A stretch of 64,000 nt of DNA from an uncultured archaeon (GTDB taxonomy: Archaea > Nanobdellota > Nanobdellia > Woesearchaeales > CAIVOO01): contig CAWJRI010000012.1 of assembly GCA_963845175.1 (NCBI GenBank), positions 13,928 through 77,927 on the forward strand, given 5' to 3'. The first letter of the stretch is position 1; every line of letters starts with the position of its first letter. Position numbers and translations under genes: made by a program. This document shows, one piece after another, positions 1,222 through 39,976 of this stretch. Below the pieces are notes generated by a model that made no database searches, was not told the origin of the DNA, and saw nothing but the letters and a program-made list of their open reading frames with translations.

Positions 1222-1254
1222 ATTTGATTAGAACTGTTTTTTATTTAAAAATCT

Positions 1255-1298
1255 TTAGATTCTTTTGATATAAATCTTGAGTTTTCCAGTATGATTGC
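1255..1298 (-). pseudogene. 44-nt relic of the 3' end of a copy of the 146/162-aa gene (3769..4209); junction scar of the tandem duplication
   Basis: The reverse complement reads NHTGKLKIYIKRI*, matching the C-terminus NHTGKLKVYIKRI* of the gene at 3769. Homology stops abruptly at 1298 / 3812 (offset 2,514 bp). Confidence 0.7.
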
Positions 1299-1337
1299 TT
1301 AATAAAGCCAGTTTAAGCGTATAATTTTAAAAAATCC

Positions 1338-3026: not shown

Positions 3027-3048
3027 TATTATTCACCTATTTAAAAAA

Positions 3049-3735: not shown

Positions 3736-3768
3736 AAATGGTTAAAATTGTTTTTTATTTAAAAAGCT

Positions 3769-5383: not shown

Positions 5384-5421
5384 TATTGTTCTGTGTTTGT
5401 CAAGAATTTATATACTTTTCT

Positions 5422-5444
5422 AAAAAAAGAAAAAAAGAAAAAAA
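5422..5444 (-). terminator. Oligo-T tract (minus strand) immediately after the stop of the 199-aa gene; candidate archaeal intrinsic terminator
   Basis: The plus strand reads aaaaaaagaaaaaaagaaaaaaa, 4 nt downstream (in the gene's orientation) of the stop at 5449-5451. A TATA-like element (tatataaatt on the minus strand, about 5408-5417) for the next gene follows. Confidence 0.45.
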
Positions 5445-5448
5445 TACT

Positions 5449-6048: not shown

Positions 6049-6063
6049 TTATTTCACCTCCTT

Positions 6064-6297
6064 TTATGTTATCTCGAGCGTAACTTTTCCAGTTGCTGAA
6101 GCAACTGTGTTTTCTCCCTGTTGTTGATCCCCATTTATAACCCCGATTGACACTTGGGCTGTGCCTTCAGGGTTTGTTCCTTTTACCACTATACCCTTAT
6201 CTAGCATCTTCCATGTAGCAATCGCAGAAAGAACAATAGCAATTACCAAAAGAATCGCCACTGTTTTTTTAGAGATATCGTCACTCATGTTTTGCAC
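6064..6297 (-). CDS. 77-aa protein with the same conserved N-terminal hydrophobic segment as the 199-aa protein, plus a short beta-rich tail
   Basis: ORF track. SD-like GAGGTG upstream. DDISKKTVAILLVIAIVLSAIA aligns with ADISNKTLAILVGIAIVVSVVG of the next gene. Confidence 0.6.
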   Translation of the reverse strand: MQNMSDDISKKTVAILLVIAIVLSAIATWKMLDKGIVVKGTNPEGTAQVSIGVINGDQQQGENTVASATGKVTLEIT

Positions 6298-6390: not shown

Positions 6391-6587
6391 GTATATAAAA
6401 TACTTACATTGTAAGTACAAATAAAAAGATTTATATATTCTATACTTACATTGTAAGTAAAACATAAATTTTTATATATAAAATACTTACATTGTAAGTA
6501 AAGAAACACAGAATTTTTATATAAGTACCTACATTGTAAGTACAAATAAAAAGATTTATATATTCTATACTTACATTGTAAGTAAAA
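6391..6587. promoter_or_regulatory. Array of five TATA-box-like elements, each followed by a 17-bp palindrome TAC[TC]TACA-T-TGTAAGTA (candidate operator)
   Basis: Palindromes at 6401-6417, 6443-6459, 6484-6500, 6526-6542 (one mismatch) and 6568-6584. Centre-to-centre spacing is 42, 41, 42 and 42 bp. Each is preceded within 2-5 nt by (T)TTATATA. The last palindrome ends 3 nt before the first HTH reading frame. Confidence 0.6.
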
Positions 6588-6767
6588 TTGATACCTACTG
6601 AGATTTTCAAAGACCGTACATTAAGTGTTCTCGAAGCTATTGTTGAATATCTCAAGGAGCAGAATGGGCTTTCTTATCACAAAATTGCTGAGATGCTAAA
6701 CAGAAATGACAGGACAGTCTGGACATGCTATCATCGCGCAAAGCAGAAAAGGAAAGTGACAGAATGA
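6588..6767 (+). CDS. Mini HTH protein, copy 1 (59 aa if initiated at TTG 6588); possibly leaderless or untranslated
   Basis: Encodes (L/M)IPTEIFKDRTLSVLEAIVEYLKEQNGLSYHKIAEMLNRNDRTVWTCYHRAKQKRKVTE. There is no ATG and no SD. Its stop overlaps the ATG of copy 2 (ATGA). Confidence 0.4.
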   Translation: MIPTEIFKDRTLSVLEAIVEYLKEQNGLSYHKIAEMLNRNDRTVWTCYHRAKQKRKVTE

Positions 6768-6924
6768 TACCTACTGAGATTTTCAAAGACCGTACATTAA
6801 GTGTTCTCGAAGCTATTGTTGAATATCTCAAGGAGCAGAATGGGCTTTCTTATCACAAAATTGCTGAGATGCTAAACAGAAATGACAGGACAGTCTGGAC
6901 ATGCTATCATCGCGCAAAGCAGAA
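6591..6924 (+). repeat. Perfect 158-bp direct repeat (6591-6748 = 6767-6924), period 176 bp, duplicating the mini-HTH gene
   Basis: Read directly from the sequence. I found no mismatches across the 158 bp. Confidence 0.9.
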
Positions 6925-6943
6925 GAGAAAGAAAAATGAATGA
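6764..6943 (+). CDS. Mini HTH DNA-binding protein, copy 2 (59 aa), sigma-70 region 4 / LuxR / Tfx-N-like helix-turn-helix
   Basis: MIPTEIF...LSYHKIAEMLNRNDRTVWTCYHRAKQKRKKNE fits the pattern LS..EIAE.L.....TV.....RA..K typical of sigma70_r4/LuxR-type HTH. An ATG with a purine-rich stretch upstream is present. The track ORF start at 6725 is an out-of-frame read-through of copy 1. Confidence 0.65.
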   Translation: MIPTEIFKDRTLSVLEAIVEYLKEQNGLSYHKIAEMLNRNDRTVWTCYHRAKQKRKKNE

Positions 6944-9900
6944 AGACAAATTAAGCGAGCTGGAGAAGAGGTTTGAGGAGTGCAAGCTCTCGCTTACTGA
7001 ATATGATATCTTAAAAGAGAAGCTAATCAAGAAATATGACTTGGCTGAGCCAGCCAAACCTCCAAGAATAGAAAAGAAGAAGCCAAGAAAGCTGGCGATT
7101 GGAATAGCTGTTTTGGTTGTCTTGATTGGATTATTCTTCTTGGTAAAGGCGCCTTCATTTACCGGCTTGTTTATGCAGAATGTAAGCAACGAGACAAATG
7201 CCAGTATTAATATAAGTGTGGTTTTGAATGAAAGTCAGATAAATGAAACTTTGAATGTTTCAATTAAGAACATTGGTTTAGAGAATATAACTGAAAATCT
7301 AACTTCAAATAATTCAATCAAGAATATTAGTTTAGAAAACAAAATTAAAAAAATCATTCCAAAAACTGCGTTGGACAAATTAAATGACAAATTCAATGGT
7401 ATCAATTTTGAAAAGGATAAAAACTACTTAAAAATAAAACACAAAAAAGCAGAAATAAGGCTAAAGGGCGCGAATGAGTCAGAGATAAAAGAAGTCCAGG
7501 TTGCAAGCGAAGATGAGATTAAGATAAAAAATAAAAAAGCTTCTTTCGGAACGCCTGTTGTCGCGATAAACTCAATAAACATAACAAATGCCACAATTAT
7601 TCTGGACAAGGAAGGGCCTGTCAATAGGATTGTCTACTGCCCTGACTGGAATTTTACTGGAGAAAGCTGCTCTGCGTGGGTTGAAACAAACATTCCATTC
7701 ACGGATTTGGGCGACAAGATAAGCTTTACAGTGACCCACTTCACAGCTTATGCAGGAAGCTTTGTGACAAATGTTGCTTCTGAATGGGATGCGGGATTGT
7801 TCACAAACACTGAGAAACTTGGCAATGTGACAATTCTTTCTGGAGCGAACACAACAGGAACATATTTGAGCTACGTCTACAGAAATGGGACAACAGCAAA
7901 CGACGCAGTTATTGTGGACTGGACGAAACTTGCGTGGGTGGATGATTACAACGGAACAACACATTATCAGGAAGCGCCGGTAAGAAGTGGAATGGTCGGC
8001 TACTGGAAACTGAACAACAACACGCTGGACAGTAGCACAAAGCACAACAATATGACAAGCTACGAGGCAACACCAACGACAGAGTGCGTTTTCGGAACAG
8101 GGAACTGCGCTTATGATTTTGGTGGAACAAGCAGTTATATGACTGCATTGAACAGTGCCGACTTTGATTTTGGCACAGGAGATTTTACAGTAGAGGTATG
8201 GGTTTATCCAACAGGAGATCCTTCTTCAATGGAGGAAATAATAAACAAGGCAGACTCAACTTCTTATGCACCTTTCAGGATTTTAAGAGTGCCAACAGGA
8301 GGCGGACTAAATTATTTAATGTCGAACACCGCGGGAAGTTGGGTAACATACGGAGGCGTATGGTACGGAGACAGCGCATACGCACCGCTAAACAAGTGGA
8401 CACACATCGTGCTGACAAGAAATTCGGGTACAGCACACTTCTACGTGAACGGAGTGCAGGTTTCGAGTATGTCAGCAAACTACCAAGTCTATAATGACGC
8501 AAGCGAAGTCGCAATAGGCAGACTCCTGCATTACGGAACACCCTACTGGTTCCAGGGCAAAATAGACAATGTAATTATTTACAAAGACAAGGGACTAACG
8601 CAAGACGAAGTAAAAGAGGAATATGCAAGAGGCGCGAAAGAGCTGAACATAACTCTGGCGTACAGAACAACTAATCTGACGCAGGAAGTTTACAACACAA
8701 GCGGGCTGCTTGGCTGGTGGAAGCTGGACGAGAACGCGACAGACTTCTCAGGAAACGGCAACAACGGGAACATTGTCGGAGCAGCAAAAATAGGCGGATA
8801 TTTCAACAACAGCTACATGTTTGACCTTGCGTACCTCAAATACATAGACGTGGGAACAGGGCTGAACGCGCAAACTGTGATGACTCTCGAAGCCTGGGTA
8901 AACCCTCACAGTGGATATTCACATATAGGGGGCATAATATCAAAGTATCAACAGGGAGCAAGCCCAGCAGGAAGCTATTACATGGACATAGATGACGCAC
9001 TGCATCCCAACTATGCATTCTACGGGCTGTCTCCTTCATGCGCAGGGTCAGTAACAAGTTACACATTCCCGACAGATAAATGGACTTACTATGCAATTAC
9101 GTACGACGGAAGCAAGGTAATAACATACATCAACGGAAACGATATAGATGAAAGAGCCTGCTCCGGAACAATAACACAGTCGTCAGCAACAGTATGGATA
9201 GGAAACCTAAACCAGCCTGCATATTATTATAACTACTATGGCAAAATCGACAGCGCGAGAGTTTACAACAGAAGCCTTTCAGCAGAGGAAATAAAATACA
9301 ACTACTGGCATGCAAACTTTACAGGCAGAAACTTCGGAGCTTACAAGGCAGAAAGCCCAGCAACAATAAACCAAAACGCAAAATACTTCCAGTACAAGGC
9401 AAAACTAGTCAGCAACGCAAGTGGGTACACTCCATTCCTAGAAAAAACTGAAGCAAATTTCTCATTTACATCTGGTAACACTGCTCCGACGCAGGGAACT
9501 CCTAAATTAAATTCAACTCACAGAACAAACAAGTCAAATGAAAATCTGACTGTCTATAACACTTCAACCTACGATGCTGATGGTGATCATGTTACAAACA
9601 TAATCAACTGGTACAGAAACGGAAATTCAATAACTGCGCTGAACATGCCTTTCAATTCCAACAATTCAGCTGGAGCTGGAAAGACAAAAGATTATTCTGG
9701 AAATGGAAATAATGGAACTATTAATGGAGCGACGTGGAGTGCAACATCTGGATTTGACGGAAAAGGAGCATACAGCTTTGACGGAACAAACGACTACATT
9801 ACAATTCCACATTCATCTTCAATAAATATTATCTCAGGCCAAGCAACTTATTCAATGTGGCTCAAAAGAGGCAGGTCTGGAGCTACTGAAGTATTGTTTG

Positions 9901-12900
9901 ACAAGAACTCTGTAACACCAGAGCCAGTTTATATCAGGTTCAGCAATAATGACCGCATTTATATTCAGATATTTGCCAACGATGGCTCTTATCATTATTT
10001 TTTTGCTTCAAGCACTTCTACGATTACTGATACGGACTGGCATTTATTAGATGTAGTCTTTGATTATGATACTTGGACAAATTCAAAAATTTACATTGAT
10101 GGGGTGGCGGAAACATTATACAGCCCAACTCAATTTGGAACGCAAATTGCATTAACAAACACAGGGATACTTACTATTGGCTCACCTAATTCTGGTGCAG
10201 ATTATAATTTCAACGGCAAAATAGACAATGTAAGAATCTACAACAGAGCTTTGTCAGCAGCGCAGATAAAAGCATTGTACAACAACAGAACAGATAGAAT
10301 TGTCTCGCAGGAATTAAATGCAGGAGAAATCTGGAAAGCGTCGATCACGCCGAATGATGGTTACGCTGACGGACTGACAAAGTTCTCGAACAACGTAACA
10401 ATACTCAGCTCAGCTAATACAGCACCTACACAAGGGACACCAATACTGAATTCAACGCACGGCACAAATAGGTCAAATGAAAATCTGACTGTCTATAACA
10501 CTTCAACCTACGATGCTGATGGTGATCATGTTACAAACATAATCAACTGGTACAGAAACGGAAATTCAATAACTGCGCTGAACATGCCTTTCAATTCCAA
10601 CAATTCAGCTGGAGCTGGAAAGACAAAAGATTATTCTGGAAATGGAAATAATGGAACTATTAATGGAGCGACGTGGAGTGCAACATCTGGATTTGACGGA
10701 AAAGGAGCATACAGCTTTGACGGAAGCAATGATATAACTGTAAGTGATTCATCATCTCTTAAATTAGGAAGAGGGTCATTCACAATAAGTTTATGGCTCA
10801 AAACTGGTTATCATGGATATCAATTAATTCTTGGAAAATATAATCCTACTTATCCATATGAAGATTATGAAATTAGTATGTTAGATGCTTCAACAATAAG
10901 AGGCTGTGCAATAGACTGTGGCACGAGTGCTTGTGGATTTGGTTCTACAAGGTTCTGTCTTCCAGTAACTTTCTCGATTGCAGATAATCAATGGCATTAT
11001 ATTACTTATACGCGAAGTGGTAGTTTAGAAACATTCTATATTGATGGCGTTTCTTTAGGAACACTTACTCAAGGACCATTGAATACGGATTCTACAGGAG
11101 TGCTTCATATCGGCAGTACATCTTTTAGCGGAAAAATAGACAACATAATCATTTACAATAGAAGTCTGACAGCGCAAGAAATCAAGGCATTGTACAACAA
11201 TAGGACAGATAGGATTGTTTCGCAGGAGTTAAATGCAGGAGATATTTGGAAAGCGGCAGTCACCCCCAATGACGGCTACACAGACGGACTCACAAAATTC
11301 TCAAACAACATAACAATACTCAGCGCAGCTAATACGGCACCTACACAGGGAACGCCTAAATTAAATTCAACCCACGGCACAAACAGATCAAATGAAAACC
11401 TGACTGTTTACAATGTTTCGACTTATGATGCAGAAGGTGATCCTGTCACAAACATAATCAACTGGTACAAAAACGGAAATTCAATTATGGCTCTGAACAT
11501 GCCGTTCAACTCAAACAATTCAGCCGGAGCTGGGAAGACAAAAGATTATTCTGGACATGGAAATAATGGAACTGTTAATGGCGCAACCTGGATTTCAAAT
11601 GGAGGGTTTGACGGAAAAGGAGCTTACAGCTTTGACGGAAGCGATTATGTAAGCTGTGGAAATAGAGCAAAAACTGTATTAAATGATAGGCTTACTCTTG
11701 AAGCTTGGATTAAGCCGACTGTAGGAGCAACCAGTCCGATAGTTGGGAAAGACTCCCAATCTCCTGGCTGGGAAAGCTATGCAATGTCACTTTCAACTGC
11801 TGGAGAAGTTGTAATGCAACTTACGAATGGTGCAACTTACTCTTATGTTAAATCAAGCGGGGTTGTATCTAACGGAGTATGGTCACATGTTGCAGTAACT
11901 TGGCAATATACAGGAGCAGGAGGAATGACTGATGTTTCAATTTACATAAATGGAGTTAAGCAAACAAATTTCCTTGTTGCTCAAACAGGAGAGCCATCTA
12001 CTTTATCAGCAGCAACAGGAGATTTAAGAATTGGAATGCTCGCAAACCAGGCATATTATTTCACAGGCAAAATAGACAATGTAAGAATCTATAACAGAAG
12101 CCTGTCAGCAGAACAGATAAAAGCATTGTACCAGAATAGGACAGATAGGATTGTTTCGCAGGAGTTAAATGCAGGAGATATTTGGAAAGCGGCAGTCACC
12201 CCCAATGATGGTTATTCAGATGGACTGACAAAGTTCTCAAATAATGTGACAATACGCGCCCCAGCTGTAGCTAACACAGCATCTACACAAGGGACACCAA
12301 TACTGAATTCAACGCACGGCACAAATAGGTCAAATGAAAACCTGACTGTTTACAATGTTTCGACTTATGATGCAGAAGGTGATCCTGTTACAAACATAAT
12401 CAACTGGTACAGGAATGGAACTTCGATTGCTGTGCTAAATATGCCGTTCAACTCAAACAATTCAGCTGGAGCTGGAAAGACAAAGGATTACTCAGGCTTA
12501 GGAAATAATGGAACTGTTAATGGAGCAAAATGGATTCCAAATGGAGGGTTTGACGGAAAAGGTACATACAGCTTCGACGGAAGCGGAACTTACATAGATT
12601 TAGGAACAGGATTAAATGTACAAACCGAAATGACATTTGAAGCGTGGGTGATGCCACATTATCCATTTCCACAAATAGGAGCAATACTATCAAAGTTTAA
12701 TCAATACGGAAGTCCACCAGGAAGCTACTATTTTACAATAGATGGGAATTTACACCCGAATTACTATATTTATGGACCAGCTTGTTCGGGACAGGTAAAT
12801 AGTTATACATTCCCGACAGAACAATGGACGCACTACGCTGTAACGTATAATGGAAGTAAAGCAATAACATATATTAACGGACAGAAAGTAGATGAAATAA

Positions 12901-15900
12901 GCTGTTCGGGTGCGATACAGCATTCAGCGTCAAGCGTATGGATAGGGAATTTAAATCAGCCAGCATATTATTACAAATATTTCGGAAAAATAGACAGCGT
13001 AAGATTATACAATACATCTTTGTCAGCGGCGCAGATAAAAGCATTGTACCAGAATAGGACAGATAGGATTGTTTCGCAGGAGTTAAATGCAGGAGATATT
13101 TGGAAAGCGGCAGTCACCCCCAATGATGGTTATTCAGATGGACTGACAAAGTTCTCAAATAATGTGACAATACGCGCCCCAGCTGTAGCTAACACAGCAC
13201 CTACACAAGGGACACCAATACTGAATTCAACGCACGGCACAAATAGGTCAAATGAAAACCTGACTGTTTACAATGTTTCGACTTATGATGCAGAAGGTGA
13301 TCCTGTTACAAACATAATCAACTGGTACAGGAATGGAACTTCGATTGCTGTGCTAAATATGCCGTTCAACTCAAACAATTCAGCTGGAGCTGGAAAGACA
13401 AAGGATTACTCAGGCTTAGGAAATAATGGAACTGTTAATGGAGCAACCTGGAATGCAACAGCTGGATTCGATGGGAAAGGCGCCTACAGCTTTAATGGTA
13501 ATACTAATAATTACATATCCTGGACTTATACAAAACCTCAAAACAGCTTTACTATGGTGGCATGGGTCAAAGCAACTACAACGCACGAAATTGATTCTTT
13601 ATCGGATCCTCTTGGTGGAGTAAGCGGTGAAAAATATGTATTCTGGCCAAATCATGAAGCTAATAGTAGTGCTGGTGCTGGACTTTCTGTCGGAACAAAT
13701 GGTATAACTGTATACGAACATGGAGATTGGTACCTGCCTGCAGTTGCCGAATATATTGGTAACTTGTCAACACATTGGCACCACATTGCCATAGTTTACG
13801 CCAACAAGCAACCTAAAATTTATTTAGATGGCGCTTTAGTAAGTACTGGCGGAATATCCACGAGGACGATAGTTTATGCTCCAACCCAAATGGGTTCAGG
13901 TTCTTATGGTGGTTTCCCAGGTTTAATAGAAGATGTCCGTATCTACAACAGTTCATTATCAGCAGTAGAAATAAAAGCATTGTACAACAACAGGACAGAC
14001 AGGATTGTCTCGCAGGAATTAAATGTAGGAGATATTTGGAAAGCGTCAATCACGCCGAACGACGGCTACAGCGACGGGCTGACAAAGTTCTCAAACAATA
14101 TAACAATCAAAGCTAACATACCGCCGACACAGGGAACGCCGATATTGAACTCAAGCAAGAGGTTGAACAGATCAAATGAAAACCTGACTGTCTACAATGT
14201 CTCAACCTATGATGCTGACAGCGATCCTGTTACAAACATAATCAACTGGTACAGAAACGGAAATTCAATCATGGTTCTGAACATGCCGTTCAATTCGAAC
14301 AATTCAGCCGGAGCTGGGAAGACAAAAGATTATTCTGGACATGGAAATAATGGAACTGTTAGTGGAGCAACCTGGATTTCAGATGGAGGGTTTGACGGGA
14401 AAGGCGCATACAGATTCAATGATAGTAAGTCAGATTTCATCAATCTTGGAACAGGCAGTTCATTAACAATTGCAGATAAAATCACTTTAGAAGCATGGAT
14501 CTACCTTCCGGACTTAACAGGATATCATCCAATTATCTCAAAACAAGGATACAGTGTGTTAAGATACAATTACGCGTTTGGAACAAGTGGTGCAAATATT
14601 TACTTGTGGCTTGATGCAGAGGGTGGGGGGACAGCCGGAGAGATTATAACAACAGACAATCCTATCACAACAACAGGCTGGCATCACATAGTTGCCTCAT
14701 ATGATGGAAGTTACGAAGCCATTTATCTGGATGGTGTGGACGTAAAGCATCAAGTAGTATCTATAACGCTGGCAAATTCAGGCACACATGCCTGCTACAT
14801 AGGAAGAGAGGATTACAATACTGGAATCTCGGGGCTTTTCAACGGAAAGATAGATTCAGCAAGAATTTATCATCGAGCTTTGACTGCGCAGCAGATAAAA
14901 GCGTTGTACAACAACAGGACAGACAAGATTGTTTCGCAGGAATTAAGTGCTGGAGATGTTTGGAAAGCATCAATCACGCCGAATGACGGATACAGCGACG
15001 GGCTGACAAAGTTCTCAAACAATGTAACAATACTAAGTTCAGCAGCAGCAAATACACCGCCAACACAGGGAACGCCGATACTAAATTCTACTCACAGAAC
15101 AAATAAGTCGAATGAGAATCTGACTGTCTACAATGTCTCAACCTATGATGCTGACAGCGATCCTGTTACAAACATAATCAACTGGTACAGAAACGGAAAT
15201 TCAATCATGGTTCTGAACATGCCGTTCAATTCGAACAATTCAGCCGGAGCTGGGAAGACAAAAGATTATTCTGGACATGGAAATAATGGAACTGTCGATG
15301 GAGCGACGTGGAGTGCAACAGCTGGATTTGACGGGAAGGGTGCATACATGTTTAGCAGCAGTTATATTGAAAGAGCCTACGACCCTGACTTTACTCCAGG
15401 AACCAAAAGCTGGACAGTTGCGGCATGGATAAAAGTTCCGCTTACTGAGGGTCCACCGTCGTTCATTGCAGACTGGTATAGATGCGGCGCTAATCCTTCA
15501 TGCGGTAGTCCTGATTCTGCATTATACAGTCTAAGCATAATTAATAACAACAAAGTAAATTGGCATGTAAGAGATGATAATAGTAATGATGTATCACTAA
15601 CAAGTTCTTCAGCTGTTGCAGATAATAATTGGCATTATATAGTTGGAACTTTTGACCCAACAAATGACTTAACAAAGTTATATATAGATGGAGCTGAAGT
15701 TGCGACAAATAATACACCCTTAACTTCTCTTTCAGACGGCGGTGTGTCAATACCATTAGAAATTGGACGACGTTTTGTAACAGGATGGGGTTCACCAAGT
15801 GGTTATTTGTACGGCAAAATAGACGATGTAAGAATCTATAGCAGAGCGCTGACAGCTGCGCAGATAAAAGCGTTGTACAACAACAGAACAGATAGGATTG

Positions 15901-18900
15901 ATTCGCAGGAATTAAAAGTTGGAGAGACTTGGAATGCGAGCGTTACGCCGAACGACGGCTACGCAGATGGGTTGACAGAATTCAGCAATTCGGTCACTAT
16001 TAAGTCGTCAACCCCTCCAAACATAACGAAGGTACAGCTGCATGACAAAAACAAAAAGCCGATAACAAACAAGACGCTCGTAAAAGCAGGGGAAAATATA
16101 ACAATAAATGTGACTGTGGCGCAGACAGAGGGAACAGTGAGCAGCGTCTGGATAAAAGTATGGAAAACTGTTGCAAACGCATTTACAACAATCTTTGAAG
16201 GAGTCCTAAATTTAATTTCTGGCAATCTGTGGCAGATAACAATAACAACAAATGGAAGCTGGACGCATGGCACGAATTACACCATCTACGCGAATGACAC
16301 AACTAATATAATAACGTCAAGAAATGAGAAAGTGTTTGTCAATAATCTGCCAACACAGGGTGTGCCGGCATTAAGTTCTCTCCTTAGAAGAAATGGAACA
16401 AATGAAAACCTAACTGTTTACAATACATCTACATATGACAGAGACAAAGATCCTGTTACAAACATAATCAACTGGTACAGGAATGGAACTTCGATTGCTA
16501 TGCTGAACATGCCGTTCAATTCGAACAATTCAGCCGGAGCTGGGAAGACAAAAGATTATTCTGGACATGGAAATAATGGAACTGTCGATGGAGCGACGTG
16601 GAGTGCAACAGCTGGATTTGACGGGAAGGGTGCATACAGCTTCACTGGAACAAATGGAGAATACATAGATGCAGGAAACGTGCCAGGAATAAATGGAGCA
16701 TCTGCATTGTCAGTTGAAGCCTGGGTTTATGTTAATGCATTTTCAGGCGATAATGGAATTGTTGCGAAAAGAGTTGCAGGCGTTGGAGAGGGCTTTCAGC
16801 TTATAAGTTATGATAGTGGAGGCAATCATTTCCATTGGTATCCAGAAACAACCGGAACAAATAATGTTGCTTCTTCAGTTAAAAATAAAGTTATCAATAC
16901 TTGGTATCATGTCGTTGGAACTTATGATGGTTCTTACGCAAGGATTTATGTTAATGGCGTTCTTGAGGATACACAAGTGGTTACGGGAACAATAATATCT
17001 TCAGCAGCGTCAATATGGATAGGAAATTATTATAGCACAGACCACCCTTTTGACGGCAAAATAGACAGCATAAGAATATACAATAGAGCGCTAAGTCCGG
17101 CGCAGATAAAGGCATTATACAACAACAGAACAGATTTAATTGTCGCTGAAGAAACAAAAAGCAAGGAAACATGGAAGGCGTGCATAACGCCGAACGACGG
17201 CTACGGAGACGGACCAACAAACTGCTCAAACAATCTCACAATAAATACAGCTCCAACGGTTGTACTGGCAGGCCCTGCCAATAACTCTGTTTGGAATATC
17301 CCGCCAACCTTCAGCTGGACTTATTCTGACAGCGACAATGATGTCCAGCAAGAATACCATATTATTATGGACAATGATAGTGACTTCTCCTCGCCGGAGA
17401 TAAATAGCACGGTAGTGAGCAGCAACAATTACACGCAGATAATGCCAAACAATCCAGGCAGTTATTACTGGAAAGTTCAGGTTTACGACGGCAAGGAATG
17501 GAGCAACTTCTCTGGCACAAGAAAGTTCACAACTACATGCCTAAGCCCATACAATGATATGTACATTAATTCAAACACAAAGCTGTGCAGCGGAACTTTC
17601 CATATTAATGACAGCTACCCTGATGGCGTCTTGATTTTAAATGCATCAGACATAATCTTAGACTGCAACAATGCAACTTTAATTGGAAATGGAGCGAACT
17701 ATGGGATTTATGTCAATCAAAAAAACAATATTACAATCAAGAACTGCATATTGAAAAATTATAATTATGGGATCTATTCTTGGTATTCGAACAATTCCAA
17801 AATAATAAATAATAAATTTTCCAACAGCACAATATATTTGTCTTCTTCACATTATTTCAACATAATAAGCAATTATATAAGCGCAAGTGGAAAACTCATA
17901 GACCTTGAGGGTTCTCGTCATACAAATATTTTCAACAATAAGATAAGCAAGAACCTATCTATTGATTTGTTTACCGGAAGTGGCAGCGGTGGACAGATTT
18001 ATGCATATCATTCACCCTACACTTATGCGCTAAATAACACATTCAAATATTCTGGAGGCATAAGGTTTTCCTGGAGCGACAACAGCAGCGCAGTCAACAA
18101 TACAGTTACTGATTTTAGCACAGCTTTTGCTGGCTTGATTGGCGTAGATGGTTCTAATGGGATTCTTTTCGAAGGAAACAATATAACAAACACAATGGGG
18201 CTGCTTGGTGCATTATATGCAGATGGTTCAAAAAATGTAATAATTAAAAGAAACAAAGTAGAGAACAACTTGCTCATGATGCTAACAATTACAAACTGCA
18301 ATAATATAACCGTCAGAGACAATAATCTAATGTCGAACAAAGACGCATGGTACATAAAGAACATATCTGCTATTTACGAAGAAATTACAAACCAGACTTT
18401 CCCGACATCCCTTGGAATTGACGGTTCGTCGTCATTCTTAATGACTTTGTTACAGCAGCTTTTCAGCCATGTTGAATCTGGCGCATTTAATATAAGTGGA
18501 GGAAATATAACGGGCGTTAATCTGGATGCTATGTCTTTATTGAAAATTCTCGGTCCGGTTTATTCGACAAATGTCAACAATATGACCTTAGTTAGCAACA
18601 ATCTAACCTTTGACAGCTTTAAAATTATGGCGAATCTGAGAGCTAACAAAGTTGATGTTAAGCGCGATGATGTTTCATTTGGAGCAGCTGTCGCGTACAT
18701 CGAAGGAAGTGATAATATTATCGAAAATAACTCTTTCATATTCAACAATAGCGGAGTTTCAATACACAGCTATGGAAATGTCACAGACATAGAAAACAAC
18801 AGATTAAACATAATTCTGGGTTCCTTCGCCCTGCAGGGAAATTCGAACAGAGTCTACCATAACAAGATGGCAATTGAAAAAAGCGGCATTGACCTGAATT

Positions 18901-21242
18901 CGCATACAAATACAACAATTGAAAATTCAACAGCTGTTAACGGCAAAGTATTCAGTATGAATATTTTAGGAAATAATAATGTTGCAAGCAATAATGATGT
19001 GCTTATCAAGGATTTGAATATAAATATAACTACCCATGGAAATAATGTTGACTTAAAAAAACTGTCAATCAATAATCTAACCATTGCGTTAGTTATTGTC
19101 GGAGGCTCGAACAACACCATCGAATCAAATAATGCAAAATATCATAATGCAAAATTATGGATCAGATCAGACGCAACAGATTATACAAAAATACATGACA
19201 CTGTTTTTGACTATAATTTTGTCTCATCCATTGGGCTAATGAATGCCAATAAAACCACAGTAAAAAACAATGTATTGACAATGGAAAATGCCGGCTTCGG
19301 CCTTGATATTATTCATGATGCATTTTATTCGACAAATATCACAAGGCTAATTTTCGGAGGAGTCGGCCTTATTAGCTCAAACAACAACACCATAGTCAAC
19401 AATTCGTTCATAGGCAACTCGCCTACTGCAAGCATCTCATTAACTCCCGCAAACGCAAAAAACAACACAATCAGCATAATTTATACGCTTCTGCTTGCAA
19501 TGCATAACTCCACTAATAATTATTTCGCAAACAACACAATTGTAAACAACACAATAAGTGAATCATTGGCTTCGCTGTTCAGCCCTTCGCTAGGGAACAA
19601 ACTAAGCATCCAGAAGCCAGGTATTTTGATTGACTCAGACAACAACAAAATATTTTCAAACAAAGTTTACAACAGCGGAAACTTTGATGCCTGGATAAAT
19701 GGAACAAACAACTCGTTCAGGCTTAACAGCTTTCTTTCAAATGGCATCGGCGGAAAGAAAAGCTTCTACGGTTCATACTCGCCGATGCACTACAATGGAG
19801 AGTATTTCAACGATACATATGGTTTTGTCGTCATAGGATCCGGCATTCAGGTTGTAACAGTAGACAACACATTAATAACACCAGCAAATGGCACCAACAA
19901 TTATGATCTTATGCTGTTCAACGACACAGTGGGTGCACTTGGAAATGGAACTGGAAAAATGTCAACCGCATTCTGTATAGGATGTTATGCTGGCGGCATA
20001 ATCAATTGCAGCGCTTTAGATGCTGCGCTTAGCTCTCCAGGTGCCTGCCGCTATTACAAACACAATGCGCTTGTAGGCCAGGGCGCTGGACAGGATTATT
20101 TGTTCAATGACATCTTCAACTCCACTTATTATGTGATACATAGCTACACTTCGCCACCTTCGATAAATTTGAAGGACTTCAGCAATAATTACTGCGTCGC
20201 TGGCGAAGGAAACTTCTATGAAGAATCGATACCTATGTCTAGAATCGGCTCGAATGACTGCGGTCTCAGCAATTTGACAAGCCCAACCGCAGGGAACTAC
20301 AACGACGGAACAGTAAAAATAAACTGGACAAGGCAGAGCGCCATGAGCACTGTAACCTATGACATCTTGCTTAACAGAACATGGACAGGAGTTGAAACGC
20401 TCCTTGCAAGAACTGTGGGGCTTAACTACCTCTGGAATACCACTGGCTACGAACCAGGCATTTACAGCATAAGGCTTGTTCCATGGATAGTCGGAAGCAG
20501 GCATAACGCGACAAATGCAAAAAGTGAAGAATTTGACCTAAACGGCACGATTCCTGCGACACCTTTGTTAATTTCGCCGGCAAACGATTCAACTCTGATC
20601 GACAGGACACCGACGATGAACTGGACAACTGTAGCAGGCAGCGGAATCACGTATCAGCTGCTGGTTGATAATGACACATCATTCGCTTCACCCGAAATAA
20701 ACGTCACAATCTCTGACACAAATTACACGCCGCTGACTGACATGAAGTTTGGAACGCACAACTGGAAAGTAAGGGCTTACAGAGGGGTTTTATATAGCAG
20801 TTTCAGCACGCAGAGGAATTTCACAATAATCACAAGCATCAGCTGCTCGCTGCCTGTGGCTGCTATTAATTTTGGAAATATAGATAAGGATGCAATTAAG
20901 AATACACAGAGCGAGAATCCTGCACCAATGATTGTCCGGAACAACGGAAACCTGAAACTCAACATTTCAATCAATTCAACTGACTTGTGGAAGTCACAAC
21001 CGAATCCGTCATCCTACTACCAGTTCAGGATCGACAAGAATGAAAGCAATGCATGGGATTCTGCGCTTAATGATTCATGGCACAATCTAGTCAAGACAAC
21101 TCCGCTGGTGGCAATCAGCGGACTGAAATACCATAGCGAAAGCAATTCAGCGGAAATCGAGCTTCAGATAACAGGACCGCCTGATGAAGGTGCAGGATCA
21201 AAGAAATCACAATTAAATGTGTGGTGCAGCCAAGATGAATAA
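6936..21242 (+). CDS. Giant (4,768 aa) N-terminally anchored surface protein: SHOCT-like cytoplasmic head, one TM, a sequon-rich stalk, ~10 LamG (concanavalin-A-like lectin) modules, Ig/FN3-like domains, a right-handed parallel beta-helix (PbH1) region and a C-terminal beta-sandwich
   Basis: A single uninterrupted ORF. Start taken at ATG 6936 (MNEDKLSELEKRFEE), because the first 18 aa of the track ORF are the HTH gene in another frame. TM is LAIGIAVLVVLIGLFFLV. LamG hallmarks (WTH.A.TY.G....YI[ND]G, GKIDNVRIYNR.LS..[EQ]IKALY) recur 10 times. Beta-helix repeats (N.TIKNC.L.N...GIY...S.NN.I.NN) span about 17540-19760. N-x-S/T sequons are abundant throughout. Confidence 0.9.
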   Translation: MNEDKLSELEKRFEECKLSLTEYDILKEKLIKKYDLAEPAKPPRIEKKKPRKLAIGIAVLVVLIGLFFLVKAPSFTGLFMQNVSNETNASINISVVLNESQINETLNVSIKNIGLENITENLTSNNSIKNISLENKIKKIIPKTALDKLNDKFNGINFEKDKNYLKIKHKKAEIRLKGANESEIKEVQVASEDEIKIKNKKASFGTPVVAINSINITNATIILDKEGPVNRIVYCPDWNFTGESCSAWVETNIPFTDLGDKISFTVTHFTAYAGSFVTNVASEWDAGLFTNTEKLGNVTILSGANTTGTYLSYVYRNGTTANDAVIVDWTKLAWVDDYNGTTHYQEAPVRSGMVGYWKLNNNTLDSSTKHNNMTSYEATPTTECVFGTGNCAYDFGGTSSYMTALNSADFDFGTGDFTVEVWVYPTGDPSSMEEIINKADSTSYAPFRILRVPTGGGLNYLMSNTAGSWVTYGGVWYGDSAYAPLNKWTHIVLTRNSGTAHFYVNGVQVSSMSANYQVYNDASEVAIGRLLHYGTPYWFQGKIDNVIIYKDKGLTQDEVKEEYARGAKELNITLAYRTTNLTQEVYNTSGLLGWWKLDENATDFSGNGNNGNIVGAAKIGGYFNNSYMFDLAYLKYIDVGTGLNAQTVMTLEAWVNPHSGYSHIGGIISKYQQGASPAGSYYMDIDDALHPNYAFYGLSPSCAGSVTSYTFPTDKWTYYAITYDGSKVITYINGNDIDERACSGTITQSSATVWIGNLNQPAYYYNYYGKIDSARVYNRSLSAEEIKYNYWHANFTGRNFGAYKAESPATINQNAKYFQYKAKLVSNASGYTPFLEKTEANFSFTSGNTAPTQGTPKLNSTHRTNKSNENLTVYNTSTYDADGDHVTNIINWYRNGNSITALNMPFNSNNSAGAGKTKDYSGNGNNGTINGATWSATSGFDGKGAYSFDGTNDYITIPHSSSINIISGQATYSMWLKRGRSGATEVLFDKNSVTPEPVYIRFSNNDRIYIQIFANDGSYHYFFASSTSTITDTDWHLLDVVFDYDTWTNSKIYIDGVAETLYSPTQFGTQIALTNTGILTIGSPNSGADYNFNGKIDNVRIYNRALSAAQIKALYNNRTDRIVSQELNAGEIWKASITPNDGYADGLTKFSNNVTILSSANTAPTQGTPILNSTHGTNRSNENLTVYNTSTYDADGDHVTNIINWYRNGNSITALNMPFNSNNSAGAGKTKDYSGNGNNGTINGATWSATSGFDGKGAYSFDGSNDITVSDSSSLKLGRGSFTISLWLKTGYHGYQLILGKYNPTYPYEDYEISMLDASTIRGCAIDCGTSACGFGSTRFCLPVTFSIADNQWHYITYTRSGSLETFYIDGVSLGTLTQGPLNTDSTGVLHIGSTSFSGKIDNIIIYNRSLTAQEIKALYNNRTDRIVSQELNAGDIWKAAVTPNDGYTDGLTKFSNNITILSAANTAPTQGTPKLNSTHGTNRSNENLTVYNVSTYDAEGDPVTNIINWYKNGNSIMALNMPFNSNNSAGAGKTKDYSGHGNNGTVNGATWISNGGFDGKGAYSFDGSDYVSCGNRAKTVLNDRLTLEAWIKPTVGATSPIVGKDSQSPGWESYAMSLSTAGEVVMQLTNGATYSYVKSSGVVSNGVWSHVAVTWQYTGAGGMTDVSIYINGVKQTNFLVAQTGEPSTLSAATGDLRIGMLANQAYYFTGKIDNVRIYNRSLSAEQIKALYQNRTDRIVSQELNAGDIWKAAVTPNDGYSDGLTKFSNNVTIRAPAVANTASTQGTPILNSTHGTNRSNENLTVYNVSTYDAEGDPVTNIINWYRNGTSIAVLNMPFNSNNSAGAGKTKDYSGLGNNGTVNGAKWIPNGGFDGKGTYSFDGSGTYIDLGTGLNVQTEMTFEAWVMPHYPFPQIGAILSKFNQYGSPPGSYYFTIDGNLHPNYYIYGPACSGQVNSYTFPTEQWTHYAVTYNGSKAITYINGQKVDEISCSGAIQHSASSVWIGNLNQPAYYYKYFGKIDSVRLYNTSLSAAQIKALYQNRTDRIVSQELNAGDIWKAAVTPNDGYSDGLTKFSNNVTIRAPAVANTAPTQGTPILNSTHGTNRSNENLTVYNVSTYDAEGDPVTNIINWYRNGTSIAVLNMPFNSNNSAGAGKTKDYSGLGNNGTVNGATWNATAGFDGKGAYSFNGNTNNYISWTYTKPQNSFTMVAWVKATTTHEIDSLSDPLGGVSGEKYVFWPNHEANSSAGAGLSVGTNGITVYEHGDWYLPAVAEYIGNLSTHWHHIAIVYANKQPKIYLDGALVSTGGISTRTIVYAPTQMGSGSYGGFPGLIEDVRIYNSSLSAVEIKALYNNRTDRIVSQELNVGDIWKASITPNDGYSDGLTKFSNNITIKANIPPTQGTPILNSSKRLNRSNENLTVYNVSTYDADSDPVTNIINWYRNGNSIMVLNMPFNSNNSAGAGKTKDYSGHGNNGTVSGATWISDGGFDGKGAYRFNDSKSDFINLGTGSSLTIADKITLEAWIYLPDLTGYHPIISKQGYSVLRYNYAFGTSGANIYLWLDAEGGGTAGEIITTDNPITTTGWHHIVASYDGSYEAIYLDGVDVKHQVVSITLANSGTHACYIGREDYNTGISGLFNGKIDSARIYHRALTAQQIKALYNNRTDKIVSQELSAGDVWKASITPNDGYSDGLTKFSNNVTILSSAAANTPPTQGTPILNSTHRTNKSNENLTVYNVSTYDADSDPVTNIINWYRNGNSIMVLNMPFNSNNSAGAGKTKDYSGHGNNGTVDGATWSATAGFDGKGAYMFSSSYIERAYDPDFTPGTKSWTVAAWIKVPLTEGPPSFIADWYRCGANPSCGSPDSALYSLSIINNNKVNWHVRDDNSNDVSLTSSSAVADNNWHYIVGTFDPTNDLTKLYIDGAEVATNNTPLTSLSDGGVSIPLEIGRRFVTGWGSPSGYLYGKIDDVRIYSRALTAAQIKALYNNRTDRIDSQELKVGETWNASVTPNDGYADGLTEFSNSVTIKSSTPPNITKVQLHDKNKKPITNKTLVKAGENITINVTVAQTEGTVSSVWIKVWKTVANAFTTIFEGVLNLISGNLWQITITTNGSWTHGTNYTIYANDTTNIITSRNEKVFVNNLPTQGVPALSSLLRRNGTNENLTVYNTSTYDRDKDPVTNIINWYRNGTSIAMLNMPFNSNNSAGAGKTKDYSGHGNNGTVDGATWSATAGFDGKGAYSFTGTNGEYIDAGNVPGINGASALSVEAWVYVNAFSGDNGIVAKRVAGVGEGFQLISYDSGGNHFHWYPETTGTNNVASSVKNKVINTWYHVVGTYDGSYARIYVNGVLEDTQVVTGTIISSAASIWIGNYYSTDHPFDGKIDSIRIYNRALSPAQIKALYNNRTDLIVAEETKSKETWKACITPNDGYGDGPTNCSNNLTINTAPTVVLAGPANNSVWNIPPTFSWTYSDSDNDVQQEYHIIMDNDSDFSSPEINSTVVSSNNYTQIMPNNPGSYYWKVQVYDGKEWSNFSGTRKFTTTCLSPYNDMYINSNTKLCSGTFHINDSYPDGVLILNASDIILDCNNATLIGNGANYGIYVNQKNNITIKNCILKNYNYGIYSWYSNNSKIINNKFSNSTIYLSSSHYFNIISNYISASGKLIDLEGSRHTNIFNNKISKNLSIDLFTGSGSGGQIYAYHSPYTYALNNTFKYSGGIRFSWSDNSSAVNNTVTDFSTAFAGLIGVDGSNGILFEGNNITNTMGLLGALYADGSKNVIIKRNKVENNLLMMLTITNCNNITVRDNNLMSNKDAWYIKNISAIYEEITNQTFPTSLGIDGSSSFLMTLLQQLFSHVESGAFNISGGNITGVNLDAMSLLKILGPVYSTNVNNMTLVSNNLTFDSFKIMANLRANKVDVKRDDVSFGAAVAYIEGSDNIIENNSFIFNNSGVSIHSYGNVTDIENNRLNIILGSFALQGNSNRVYHNKMAIEKSGIDLNSHTNTTIENSTAVNGKVFSMNILGNNNVASNNDVLIKDLNINITTHGNNVDLKKLSINNLTIALVIVGGSNNTIESNNAKYHNAKLWIRSDATDYTKIHDTVFDYNFVSSIGLMNANKTTVKNNVLTMENAGFGLDIIHDAFYSTNITRLIFGGVGLISSNNNTIVNNSFIGNSPTASISLTPANAKNNTISIIYTLLLAMHNSTNNYFANNTIVNNTISESLASLFSPSLGNKLSIQKPGILIDSDNNKIFSNKVYNSGNFDAWINGTNNSFRLNSFLSNGIGGKKSFYGSYSPMHYNGEYFNDTYGFVVIGSGIQVVTVDNTLITPANGTNNYDLMLFNDTVGALGNGTGKMSTAFCIGCYAGGIINCSALDAALSSPGACRYYKHNALVGQGAGQDYLFNDIFNSTYYVIHSYTSPPSINLKDFSNNYCVAGEGNFYEESIPMSRIGSNDCGLSNLTSPTAGNYNDGTVKINWTRQSAMSTVTYDILLNRTWTGVETLLARTVGLNYLWNTTGYEPGIYSIRLVPWIVGSRHNATNAKSEEFDLNGTIPATPLLISPANDSTLIDRTPTMNWTTVAGSGITYQLLVDNDTSFASPEINVTISDTNYTPLTDMKFGTHNWKVRAYRGVLYSSFSTQRNFTIITSISCSLPVAAINFGNIDKDAIKNTQSENPAPMIVRNNGNLKLNISINSTDLWKSQPNPSSYYQFRIDKNESNAWDSALNDSWHNLVKTTPLVAISGLKYHSESNSAEIELQITGPPDEGAGSKKSQLNVWCSQDE
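9476..17240 (+). repeat. Eight tandem ~0.9-1.3 kb coding modules (small beta-sandwich split by a LamG domain) with 100%-identical nucleotide blocks in the linkers and divergent LamG cores
   Basis: Module starts (N[TI][AP]PTQGTP) are near 9476, 10413, 11328, 12270, 13190, 14113, 15050 and 16340. Identical blocks: 9533-9786 = 10472-10725; 12114-12528 = 13032-13446 (1 mismatch); 14184-14359 = 15120-15295; 15213-15348 = 16503-16638. Confidence 0.9.
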
Positions 21243-21876
21243 GCTGAACAGAACAGGGCTTGTGATGTTTTTGCTAGCTGTGCTTGTGTGCAGCTCTGCG
21301 CTTGCACTTGGGATAGGAACAAACAACAAGGTAATTAAATATGAGCCGAATGTTCAAAAATCAGCCAGTGTCTATATAATAAATGATGAGCATAAAGACA
21401 TGAATGTCGAAATATCTGCTGCTGGCTCGCTTGCAGAGTATGCGACAGTTCCGAACACATTATTTGTTTCGGCTTCAGAGGACATAAAGAAGTTCAGCAT
21501 TGATTTCACGCTGCCGAAAGGCCTGGAAGAAGGCGACTTAAAAGTGATTGCCTCCGAAGCAACTATTCAGAACAGTCAGATAGGCGCGAAGGTGCACGCA
21601 ATTGCAGAGGTAAAGATAGATTTCTCAACAGGTGCAGCAAAAGAAGAAAATGCAAATGTTAAGAAAGTCAATCTTGGGGAGCATCTGACAAATGTGCAAG
21701 AAGCTGATCCTTTCGGCATTAAGAAAGGGGCTGCTGCAAAATACAACATAGTAAAGGCGCTGCTAATACCCTCAATAGCAATAATTACAATAGTTATCGT
21801 AGATTTAATATTTTATTACAGAAGGAGAAAGGCAAAGCGTGGCCAGGAGCGTTTTAGCGAGCTTGGGAAGCTTTAA
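21235..21876 (+). CDS. 213-aa surface protein: signal peptide, one beta-sandwich domain, C-terminal TM and a basic tail; paralog of the N-terminal domain of the 398-aa protein
   Basis: The ATG at 21235 overlaps the giant gene's stop by 8 nt (ATGAATAA). AAGSLAEYATVPNTLFV aligns with LSGDLAEYATLSSNKVFL (398-aa protein). C-terminus IAIITIVIVDLIFYYRRRKAKR. Confidence 0.75.
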   Translation: MNKLNRTGLVMFLLAVLVCSSALALGIGTNNKVIKYEPNVQKSASVYIINDEHKDMNVEISAAGSLAEYATVPNTLFVSASEDIKKFSIDFTLPKGLEEGDLKVIASEATIQNSQIGAKVHAIAEVKIDFSTGAAKEENANVKKVNLGEHLTNVQEADPFGIKKGAAAKYNIVKALLIPSIAIITIVIVDLIFYYRRRKAKRGQERFSELGKL

Positions 21877-39975: not shown

Positions 39976-39976
39976 T

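Follow-up and report, generated by a model that had tools for sequence, protein, structure and literature searches.

A giant LamG-rich surface protein with constant frames and variable cores, a probable adhesin of a Woesearchaeota-like archaeon

The window analysed here is a stretch of 64,000 nucleotides from an uncultured archaeon (contig CAWJRI010000012.1), in which a single gene at positions 6936–21242 encodes a protein of 4,768 residues. The best explanation for this gene, and one that we consider probable while leaving real room for doubt, is that it encodes a giant type II, N-glycosylated surface adhesin, made by a DPANN archaeon similar to Woesearchaeota, and that its binding cassettes form an array that undergoes recombination. 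The protein contains ten LamG modules, and most of these are mosaics in which a conserved frame surrounds a variable core. The cores differ between close relatives, with sharp breakpoints at their edges. This organisation into constant frames and variable cores, and the swapping of cores between close relatives, were missed in the original prediction made from the letters of the window. Features described below are on the plus strand unless noted otherwise.

The gene and its product

The open reading frame (ORF) is unbroken from 6882 to 21242. Translation from the ATG at 6936 gives 4,768 residues plus a stop codon, with the N-terminus MNEDKLSELEKRF. This is the more plausible start, because the ATG at 6882 sits within an upstream helix-turn-helix (HTH) gene that is read in another frame. 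The single ORF of the original prediction is real, on the evidence of the uninterrupted frame and of a syntenic ortholog, P0158, on contig L082. The window has no N bases, and the GC profile along the gene shows no abrupt shift.

A Pfam scan of the whole protein finds Laminin_G_3 (in 10 stretches), Beta_helix and Ig_Rha78A_N. The richness in N-x-S/T sequons that had been claimed is also borne out: there are 177, compared to 98.0 ± 8.3 expected from 500 composition-preserving shuffles, which is an excess of about 9.5 standard deviations. None of them precedes the transmembrane (TM) helix, and all sit C-terminal of it. The protein is presumably glycosylated at such sites.

The LamG array

Laminin_G_3 (PF13385) matches the protein with an E-value of 8.6e-223 and 730.8 bits (cut-off 27.6), a single unit on its own reaching 103.8 bits, and its 10 stretches agree with the count of LamG modules given originally. 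Two of the modules, LamG1 (about residues 361–560) and LamG2 (about residues 590–790), have no frame and are separated by a conserved linker (8016–9305). They are followed by eight framed LamG units, U1 to U8 (residues 846–3448; 9471–17279), which were delimited by aligning the units and by the DNA repeat families D1–D3. The units are about 305–315 residues long, with the exception of U7, which reaches 430 residues through an insert of about 110. Each begins with an N-frame of about 105 residues, which is 84% identical in amino acid sequence among U1–U8, and ends with a C-frame of about 65 residues, which is 76% identical. Between them is a core of about 140 residues, for which the identity is only 21%. 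The frames hold a small β-rich segment at each end, and they also include the strands with which the LamG domain opens and closes.

Frames and cores also differ at the level of codons. Where residues are identical, the codons are identical in 70% of cases in the N-frame and 63% in the C-frame, but in 47.5% in the cores. Within 9533–16640, neighbouring units with unrelated cores share stretches of perfect DNA identity, of 254 nt (9533/10472), 246 nt (12283/13201), 176 nt (14184/15120), 168 nt (12114/13032) and 136 nt (15213/16503). Such tracts could be a signature of gene conversion, and they are also a hazard for assembly. Taken together, the codon identities and the perfect tracts imply that frames and cores differ in history, either because the frames have been homogenised or because the cores have been imported. 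The core of LamG2 is a paralog of the U4 core, with 72% DNA identity (repeat D4), which shows that cores move without their frames.

The insert of about 110 residues follows the C-frame of U7 (residues 3024–3133; 16005–16334) and is evident as an insertion relative to the other units. An insert had been predicted at about 16010–16340, and its existence is confirmed both by the unit alignment and by the ortholog P0158, which has two copies (75–76% identical). It is presumed to be Ig-like; a Pfam and NCBIfam search gave no family match.

The AlphaFold2 (AF2) model of U1+U2 has a predicted local distance difference test score (pLDDT) of 85.9 and a predicted template modelling score (pTM) of 0.66, with the terminal half-frames at pLDDT 88–98. 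It has the curved two-sheet jelly roll of the Laminin_G_3/ConA-like superfamily. In Foldseek, neurexin LNS, laminin LG4-5, TeNT/BoNT Hc and trans-sialidase lectin domains all match it at a probability of 1.00. Other matches are the carbohydrate-binding domain 4 of AbnA (TMt 0.76, root-mean-square deviation 3.0) and many phage LamG structural proteins.

Some homologs help to show how the frames may be arranged. In P0038, P0053 and P0055 the N-frame comes immediately after the signal peptide, and in P0038 the last unit ends in a C-frame, followed by a C-terminal anchor. The giant array likewise opens with an N-frame and closes with a C-frame. Because these termini and the high pLDDT of the half-frames agree, the two frame halves of one unit probably form a single small β-domain, into which the LamG jelly roll is inserted.

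Core replacement between alleles

Three alleles were compared, namely this gene, P0158 on L082, and a 2.6-kb fragment, L083. P0158 has 3,689 residues and is 80% identical over residues 1–345 (by exhaustive HMMER); L082 comes from an independent assembly. It is fully syntenic with the window, having two 59-aa HTH genes, the giant gene, a protein of about 214 residues with signal peptide and TM segment, CTP synthase, SecF and SecD. The flanking DNA is colinear at 78–83%, and the flanking proteins are 56–92% identical.

Within the giant protein, several regions outside the array are well conserved in P0158: 88% identity for the head and TM helix (aa 1–75), 72% for the stalk, 82% for the N-domain, and 70% for the C-terminal 350 residues. 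P0158 has six framed units compared to the eight here, two U7-type inserts compared to one, and a shorter, different β-helix. The LamG cores are 23–45% identical to any P0158 core, with the exception of U6, which is 59% identical to V1 at a different position in the array. At the DNA level the cores, including those of LamG1 and LamG2, cannot be aligned with P0158, while the linkers at 8550–8815 and 9234–9799 align at about 78%. The comparison with L083 is sharper still: identity is 90–98% through residue 350, then falls to 52%, and then to 33% within the first LamG core (LamG1). The simplest explanation is that this core has been replaced by recombination, since ordinary divergence cannot produce such a step.

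No donor cassettes (LamG units, N-domain, β-helix or C-terminal module) were found in the window outside the gene. The change also differs in kind from that in proteins diversified by diversity-generating retroelements (DGRs), where adenine-specific changes occur in a region of C-type-lectin fold and a reverse transcriptase with its template repeat lies close by; here, whole cores are replaced, rather than single positions. The Pfam scan of the protein gave no CLec domain, and no search of the window for a DGR reverse transcriptase was made.

The membrane anchor

The protein starts with a putative cytoplasmic head of 52 residues (6936–7091). This contains a helical-looking motif, LSELEKRFEECKLSLTEYDILKEKLIKK, at residues 5–33 of 4,768, followed by a K/R-rich stretch, PPRIEKKKPRK. 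Conservation of the head is high, including 98% identity to L083 over residues 1–50. The head leads into a single TM helix or signal anchor (residues 53–71; 7092–7148), with PSFTG next. Its Kyte-Doolittle value of 2.83 makes it the sole strong hydrophobic segment, the runner-up being at 1.49. There are seven K/R in the 15 residues before it and none in the 15 after it, and there is a Pro after the only A-x-A-like site. These are the features of a type II signal anchor. Topology was assigned by the positive-inside rule only, and by that rule the charges support an N-in, C-out orientation, with the N-terminus in the cytoplasm and the remaining 4,700 or so residues predicted to be outside. The single TM helix at about 7091–7148, and the type II arrangement proposed with it, therefore hold up.

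The further suggestion that the head is SHOCT-like does not. By eye, there is a likeness, as both have a short amphipathic helix pair and an E-Y-D...K...L pattern, and each matches weakly the same part of GvpG. However, PF09851 (SHOCT, a model of 28 residues) gave no match at E ≤ 10 for the 52-residue head, a 35-residue stretch with the motif, or the first 350 residues, while a genuine SHOCT of equal length, the C-terminus of P0129, used as positive control, gave E 1.8e-8 and 34.3 bits. No alignment came out of a BLASTP comparison between the head and this true SHOCT. Nor was SHOCT found in the heads of eight relatives, where P0257 alone had a sub-threshold match to DUF1707 ('SHOCT-like'; 16.6 bits vs 27.6) that is too weak to transfer. 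With a working control, these negatives leave the SHOCT assignment unsupported, and the resemblance is a by-eye pattern rather than a demonstrated relationship. SHOCT is found mostly at the C-terminus, but the position of the head would not in itself have been decisive, because N-terminal occurrences of SHOCT are on record (PMC3581485).

Stalk, membrane-proximal domain and a wider class of giant proteins

Residues 72–195 (7149–7520), the first 124 on the predicted extracellular side, are a low-complexity stalk with 12 sequons, or 9.7 per 100 residues, in keeping with the sequon-dense stalk originally described. Next comes a conserved membrane-proximal domain with linker (residues 196–345, the core being about 200–285; 7521–7970). 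It has no Pfam or NCBIfam family. A word-indexed search with the N-terminal 350 residues came back empty and suggested an orphan anchor, but exhaustive HMMER overturned this, finding homologs of the domain in 239 proteins at E ≤ 1e-3 and 66 at E ≤ 1e-10. Most of the 239 align to residues ~170–300, and their sizes include 4,736, 5,316, 5,993 and 6,042 residues.

Among the best 150 of these 239 relatives, 125 have an N-terminal hydrophobic segment, and in about 30 of the 150 it begins beyond residue 40, which would give a cytoplasmic head of at least 40 residues. Two of the relatives, P0161 and P0231, have helical cytoplasmic heads, and their C-terminal end was read by eye as the same terminal cap domain as in the present protein. 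The class can be described by an N-terminal hydrophobic anchor, a sequon-rich stalk and a domain homologous to residues ~200–285, all of which are present here. Judged from these sequences, the succession of head, TM helix, stalk and domain is a recurrent design in a large and unannotated class of giant surface proteins. The anchor, described originally as unusual, is thus not so.

Several further features of these relatives may be mentioned. In 55 of the 125, an x-T-G motif (for example PSFTG, PGITG, PSLTG, NITGY) comes just after the N-terminal hydrophobic segment; it might mark a site of processing or play a part in membrane exit. Eight proteins (P0165, P0210, P0248, P0254, P0255, P0292, P0303 and P0218) have a common head before the TM segment, (M)VHKRYIKKGGK-x-YGPY-x-YKSVR...GKV..IYLG, in the first ~50 residues. 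A second head type, ITYAEYEYL..YLKGKSL..W..YY, is found in P0206, P0242, P0261 and P0265. Neither head type has a Pfam family. In P0231 (5,993 residues), at roughly residues 2960–3420, a LamG unit is interrupted by the stretch CYDNETEILTDQGW ... VLVRRHNGT, an insertion whose sequence looks like an intein or Hint-type element.

The C-terminal third

The array is followed by an Ig/FN3-like domain (residues 3449–3540; 17280–17555), in which Ig_Rha78A_N (PF25788) matches residues 3457–3536 just above its cut-off (E 8e-7; 29.7 bits vs 27.4). Pfam fn3 (PF00041) has no match anywhere in the protein. Of the FN3-like domains originally proposed, therefore, the first is supported by a related family, though not as PF00041, and the two near the C-terminus, discussed below, are weakly supported.

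Residues 3541–4275 (735 residues; 17556–19760) form a right-handed parallel β-helix. Beta_helix (PF13229) scores 50.7 bits against a cut-off of 25.9 in two stretches, the best being residues 3556–3703, and the NCBIfam repeat TIGR03804 (para_beta_helix) scores 24.1 against 19.45, in agreement with the PbH1-type helix placed earlier at 17540–19760. NosD is sub-threshold, at 23.8 bits vs 300. Over its full length, the helix is 31–33% identical to P0001 and P0002, which are 2,150-residue proteins with ordinary signal peptides and with precomputed Pfam Beta_helix/NosD annotation. Catalytic subfamilies (pectate lyase, GH28, tailspike depolymerase) gave no match in Pfam or NCBIfam, and no sequence relative of the helix was found in the PDB, by single sequence or by a three-sequence profile. 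The evidence thus points to generic β-helix repeats, and the possible role in glycan degradation that had been raised is not supported.

The cysteine-containing segment that had been noted after the helix is also recognisable as a module (residues 4276–4417; 19761–20186). It is 56% identical to P0001, and is duplicated in P0001 and P0002 with its cysteines conserved; it is missing from P0158. The AF2 model is poor over this module. There follow a NYC-x-GEGNFYE motif and two FN3-like domains (residues 4418–4632; 20187–20831), a region conserved in P0001, P0002, P0003 and P0158. The second of these domains is 35–46% identical to PF25788-annotated repeats in homologs. An AF2 model of the last 493 residues, built from a 13-row alignment, has a mean pLDDT of 51, with 70–84 for the first C-terminal FN3-like domain (FN3b block), and Foldseek finds weak tandem-FN3 matches to it. 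The predicted FN3 and cap folds are therefore weakly supported.

The final 136 residues (4633–4768; 20832–21239), ending VWCSQDE, form a cap with no Pfam or NCBIfam family. In every homolog found (P0003, P0075-77, P0083, P0046, P0054, P0013, P0024, P0029, P0158) it is at the C-terminus or within about 10 residues of it. The cap is predicted to be all-β, with pLDDT about 55–70; the terminal β-sandwich of the original prediction agrees with this in its β content, and is weakly supported as a specific fold. Two cysteines, one near the first strand at residue 4637 (SISCSLP; nt ~20844) and one among the last residues at 4764 (VWCSQDE; nt ~21225), are kept in both P0158 and P0003, whereas more distant caps do not keep them; this pattern suggests a lineage-specific disulfide staple.

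Neighbouring genes and source of the DNA

Upstream of the gene, at 6392–6588, Tandem Repeats Finder (TRF) identifies 4.7 copies of a 42-bp unit, each containing a TATA-like TTTATATA and a near-palindrome TACTTACATTGTAAGTA. There are five evenly spaced copies of TACTTACATTGTAAGTA (~42 bp apart), each with TTTATATA before it. The 13-mer core of the palindrome has nine matches compared to 0.05 expected, and three copies in each of L082 and L083. The array is placed between the operon of the HTH and giant genes and a divergent operon. It could be a promoter/operator region, possibly an operator for the adjacent HTH proteins.

The first small HTH gene (6588–6767) encodes 59 residues resembling sigma-70 region 4 (Pfam Sigma70_r4_2, E 5.3e-6) and is 92% identical to its counterpart in L082. 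Its stop codon overlaps the ATG of the second as ATGA. This second copy (6764–6943) is a 176-nt tandem duplicate (repeat D5, 95% identity; TRF period 176, 98% matches), and between its stop and the beginning of the giant gene there is in turn an overlap of 8 nt (ATGAATGA). The HTH pair also precedes the ortholog in L082, and L083 has apparently one copy. A 59-residue gene upstream of P0001 has no relationship to the HTH genes here.

The gene downstream (21235–21876), whose start overlaps the giant-gene stop, encodes 213 residues with a signal-peptide-like N-terminus, a β-rich middle, and a C-terminal TM segment with basic tail. It has no family match in Pfam or NCBIfam. It occupies the same position in L082, with 72% identity, and its position suggests that it may be functionally linked to the giant gene.

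On the minus strand, 535–6290 holds a divergent run of at least seven genes. One is an ORF of ~73 residues (about 6070–6290) with a hydrophobic N-terminus, and the others encode 199, 398, 162, 228, 562 and 228 residues. Their order is kept in L082 at 56–80% identity. Five of these genes were scanned against Pfam and gave no match; the run may be another surface-structure operon. Also on the minus strand, at 37729–42241 and some 19 kb away from the giant gene, a T2SSE-family ATPase (754 residues) adjoins a 748-residue protein without a Pfam match. In L001, P0001 is the immediate upstream neighbour of a type IV pilus-like locus, but a link between the giant protein and pili on this basis was dropped, since the window has only the distant T2SSE gene.

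The window contains archaeal housekeeping genes (Nop5, fibrillarin, RFC, RtcB, SecD/F and tRNA synthetases), and no tRNA genes or Rfam families were found in it. RtcB is 94% identical to that of a lake-sediment metagenome-assembled genome (MAG) labelled 'uncultured archaeon'. Matches at 64–76% carry mixed labels (uncultured archaea, and MAGs named Methanosarcinales, Eubacteriales and Aminicenantes), and named Woesearchaeota MAGs are at 65–72%. Homologs of the LamG units are annotated as Nanoarchaeota, and those of the C-terminal part as Woesearchaeota, Aenigmatarchaeota and Micrarchaeota. The likely source, from one marker gene and the names of homologs, is a Woesearchaeota-like member of the DPANN, and the archaeal source supposed in the original prediction is thereby supported. 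The window also has a bacterial-type full-length RelA/SpoT homolog (HD, RelA_SpoT, TGS, ACT) and an AspRS with GAD insertion, at 50756–52684 and 55632–57383, and the RtcB matches at ~65–75% include many bacterial Aminicenantes. Together these suggest that genes have been acquired from bacteria.

Function and rival explanations

Giant LamG-rich proteins are standing candidates for the means by which DPANN archaea recognise and hold their hosts. We propose that the 52-residue head and the TM helix would anchor the protein in the membrane, and that the sequon-dense stalk and membrane-proximal domain would raise the remainder off the cell. Outwards from there would come the ten LamG modules, the long β-helix as a rod, and the FN3-FN3-cap as distal end. 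The conserved frames would serve as homology arms, through which cores could be duplicated, moved and replaced by recombination. The outcome would be strain-specific binding of glycans or glycoproteins on the host-cell surface. LamG-rich, N-glycosylated, organism-specific surface proteins of DPANN archaea have been proposed to function in host attachment (PMC7443923, PMC5498576, PMC10266531, PMC11310336), and the candidacy as a host-attachment protein put forward originally agrees with these proposals, binding itself being presumed.

A stronger version, which we put forward only tentatively as it is more doubtful than the adhesin itself, is that this is a dedicated system of surface variation. 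The frames would then be recombination arms for exchanging cores within the array, between strains, or with DPANN lineages living alongside, and the HTH pair, acting on the 42-bp array, would control expression. If true, this would be cassette-based antigenic or host-range variation in an archaeon. As three comparable alleles are available and the scaffold separates cleanly from the binding cores, cores could be expressed singly for ligand tests, and core breakpoints could be traced in population metagenomes to ask if host range tracks cassette content.

Several considerations weigh against the adhesin reading as we have stated it. LamG domains are also found in enzymes and structural proteins. 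The function is deduced from sequence and models, and ligand, host and localisation are likewise conjectural. Membrane topology comes solely from the positive-inside rule, the lineage from one marker plus homolog names, and the host dependence of the archaeon is an assumption. The pairing of frame halves is argued indirectly. Only three alleles are compared, one of them a 2.6-kb fragment, and short-read assembly could have misordered or miscounted units, in which case part of the perfect-tract signal would be an artefact.

Of the four rival explanations, the weightiest is that the protein is a structural component of the envelope or matrix, for instance a sheath associated with an S-layer or the scaffold of a biofilm, and that its variability serves escape from viruses or grazers and not recognition of a host. 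We consider this improbable. The protein is indeed large, sequon-rich and repetitive; one unit has as its best PDB sequence match 4qvs, an 'S-layer domain-containing protein' (E 1.5e-7); and since structural and receptor-binding proteins of phages commonly contain LamG, surface arrays might equally be targets or decoys. Other archaea, Haloquadratum among them, are described as having hypervariable cell-wall islands driven by phage pressure (PMC4535781). However, the Pfam scan detected neither an SLH-type domain nor one that forms lattices, and the protein has just one anchor, at its N-terminus. Its layout, in which a stalk carries binding modules distally, is that of an adhesin, and the DPANN literature favours host attachment (PMC7443923, PMC5498576). 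Rather less probable is a surface-tethered polysaccharide-degrading enzyme, with the β-helix as lyase or glycosidase and LamG as carbohydrate-binding modules. Repeats of the Beta_helix/PbH1 type are well known in pectate lyases, GH28 enzymes and phage tailspike depolymerases, and the LamG-fold matches include the AbnA arabinanase binding domain and sialidase lectin domains. Against this, the searches described above returned no catalytic family, a NosD score far below its cut-off, and no PDB relative of the helix; furthermore, P0158 has a shorter and different helix and lacks the Cys module, as would be expected of a spacer or rod more than of an active site under conservation.

It is similarly improbable that the hydrophobic segment is a signal peptide which has a long n-region and is cleaved off, so that the protein is released, or held at the surface through its C-terminal cap instead of an N-terminal anchor. 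The signal peptides of shorter cap-bearing homologs (P0003 and P0038-like) are indeed ordinary and short; in all homologs found the cap is terminal or nearly so, as are sorting and attachment domains; and the conserved x-T-G after the TM segment of many relatives could mark processing. But a 52-residue head conserved at 88–98% in orthologs is atypical as an n-region, and many relatives have heads of 40–134 residues bearing recognisable conserved motifs. In addition, in VKA-PSFTG the only A-x-A-like site has a Pro at +1, and the TG site has an aromatic residue at -3; signal peptidase I disfavours each of these. Least of all do we credit an assembly artefact, in which several LamG and β-helix genes were joined chimerically through repeats. 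The exact repeats of 254, 246, 176, 168 and 136 nt are longer than the k-mers in common use, and with the frames in phase a mis-join would stay open; L083 ends within LamG1, and the MAG of the close relative is fragmented; and the β-helix/Cys segment is similar to P0001 and P0002, whose source is a different organism from the sample that also gave P0158. Yet in the independent assembly a single ORF, set among the same neighbouring genes, likewise contains the head, TM helix, stalk, frames, β-helix start and C-terminal module, and the boundaries of the β-helix align with P0158 DNA (17053–17762 and 20179 onward). Together with the absence of N bases and the smooth GC profile, this makes a chimera unlikely. 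That the gene exists is more certain than the number (eight) and order of its units, because exact internal repeats of up to 254 nt can confuse short-read assemblers while keeping the frame open.

Comparison with known systems

The closest parallels to the proposed adhesin are the multi-LamG surface proteins of other DPANN archaea, namely the Nanohaloarchaeota LC1Nh, SVXNc and BNXNv and the Micrarchaeota Mia14 (PMC7443923, PMC10266531, PMC5498576), and homologs of the present units are indeed annotated 'LamG domain-containing protein [Nanoarchaeota archaeon]'. Like the protein described here, they are secreted or membrane-bound, contain between one and several LamG domains and numerous sites for N-glycosylation, and are specific to an organism or strain. 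They have up to about five LamG domains, whereas here there are ten, eight of them framed, in 4,768 residues; and the present protein adds a 735-residue β-helix, a Cys module, a cap and an N-terminal signal anchor.

The SPEARE proteins of Nanohaloarchaeota are likewise giant (5,000–9,409 residues), membrane-anchored, strain-variable DPANN surface proteins with Ig/FN3-like arrays, and are thought to interact with the host (PMC10266531). They have an N-terminal Sec signal, a C-terminal TM segment and a cytosolic VirB4/TraG-like ATPase (PMC10266531). In contrast, the protein here is anchored at the opposite end, has no second hydrophobic segment and no ATPase domain in the Pfam scan, and ends in a β-rich cap. 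Among proteins sharing its membrane-proximal domain, P0205 is SPEARE-like by eye, with a C-terminal hydrophobic segment followed by a P-loop-like GATGSGKT, and P0178, P0220, P0246 and P0293 have, again by eye, a C-terminal hydrophobic segment and a charged tail.

The LNS (LG) arrays of neurexin and laminin share the tandem jelly-roll fold, as detected by Foldseek, and are ligand-binding modules, as is presumed here, whose variability is concentrated in part of the domain. They are eukaryotic and are kin by fold only; their variability arises by splicing at loops, whereas here the central ~140 residues are replaced. The giant bacterial repeat adhesins LapA, SiiE and MpIBP are anchored to the cell at one end and extended by long repeats, with the modules that bind ligands located towards the far end, and the logic of anchor, extender and binding is shared; SiiE is among the weak Foldseek matches of the C-terminal model. 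They differ in using type I secretion, an outer-membrane anchor and Ca-binding BIg extenders, whereas the present protein has an archaeal signal anchor, and its repeats are themselves the putative binding modules. Proteins of the NosD/PbH1 type resemble the β-helix, through the Beta_helix and para_beta_helix matches and through the annotation of P0001 and P0002, but the NosD score is far from its threshold and there is no nos gene context here.

In kind, therefore, the system is already known, as one of the giant sugar-coated lectin-domain adhesins of host-dependent archaea, and not a new kind of system. What is new is in the detail: a mosaic of frames and cores with strain-level core replacement, two translationally coupled HTH genes with an upstream array of 42-bp palindromes, and anchor and cap modules common to a wider class of giant proteins. 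The anchor of head, TM helix, stalk and domain, together with the C-terminal cap, can thus be regarded as building blocks shared across a large and mostly unannotated class of giant archaeal proteins.

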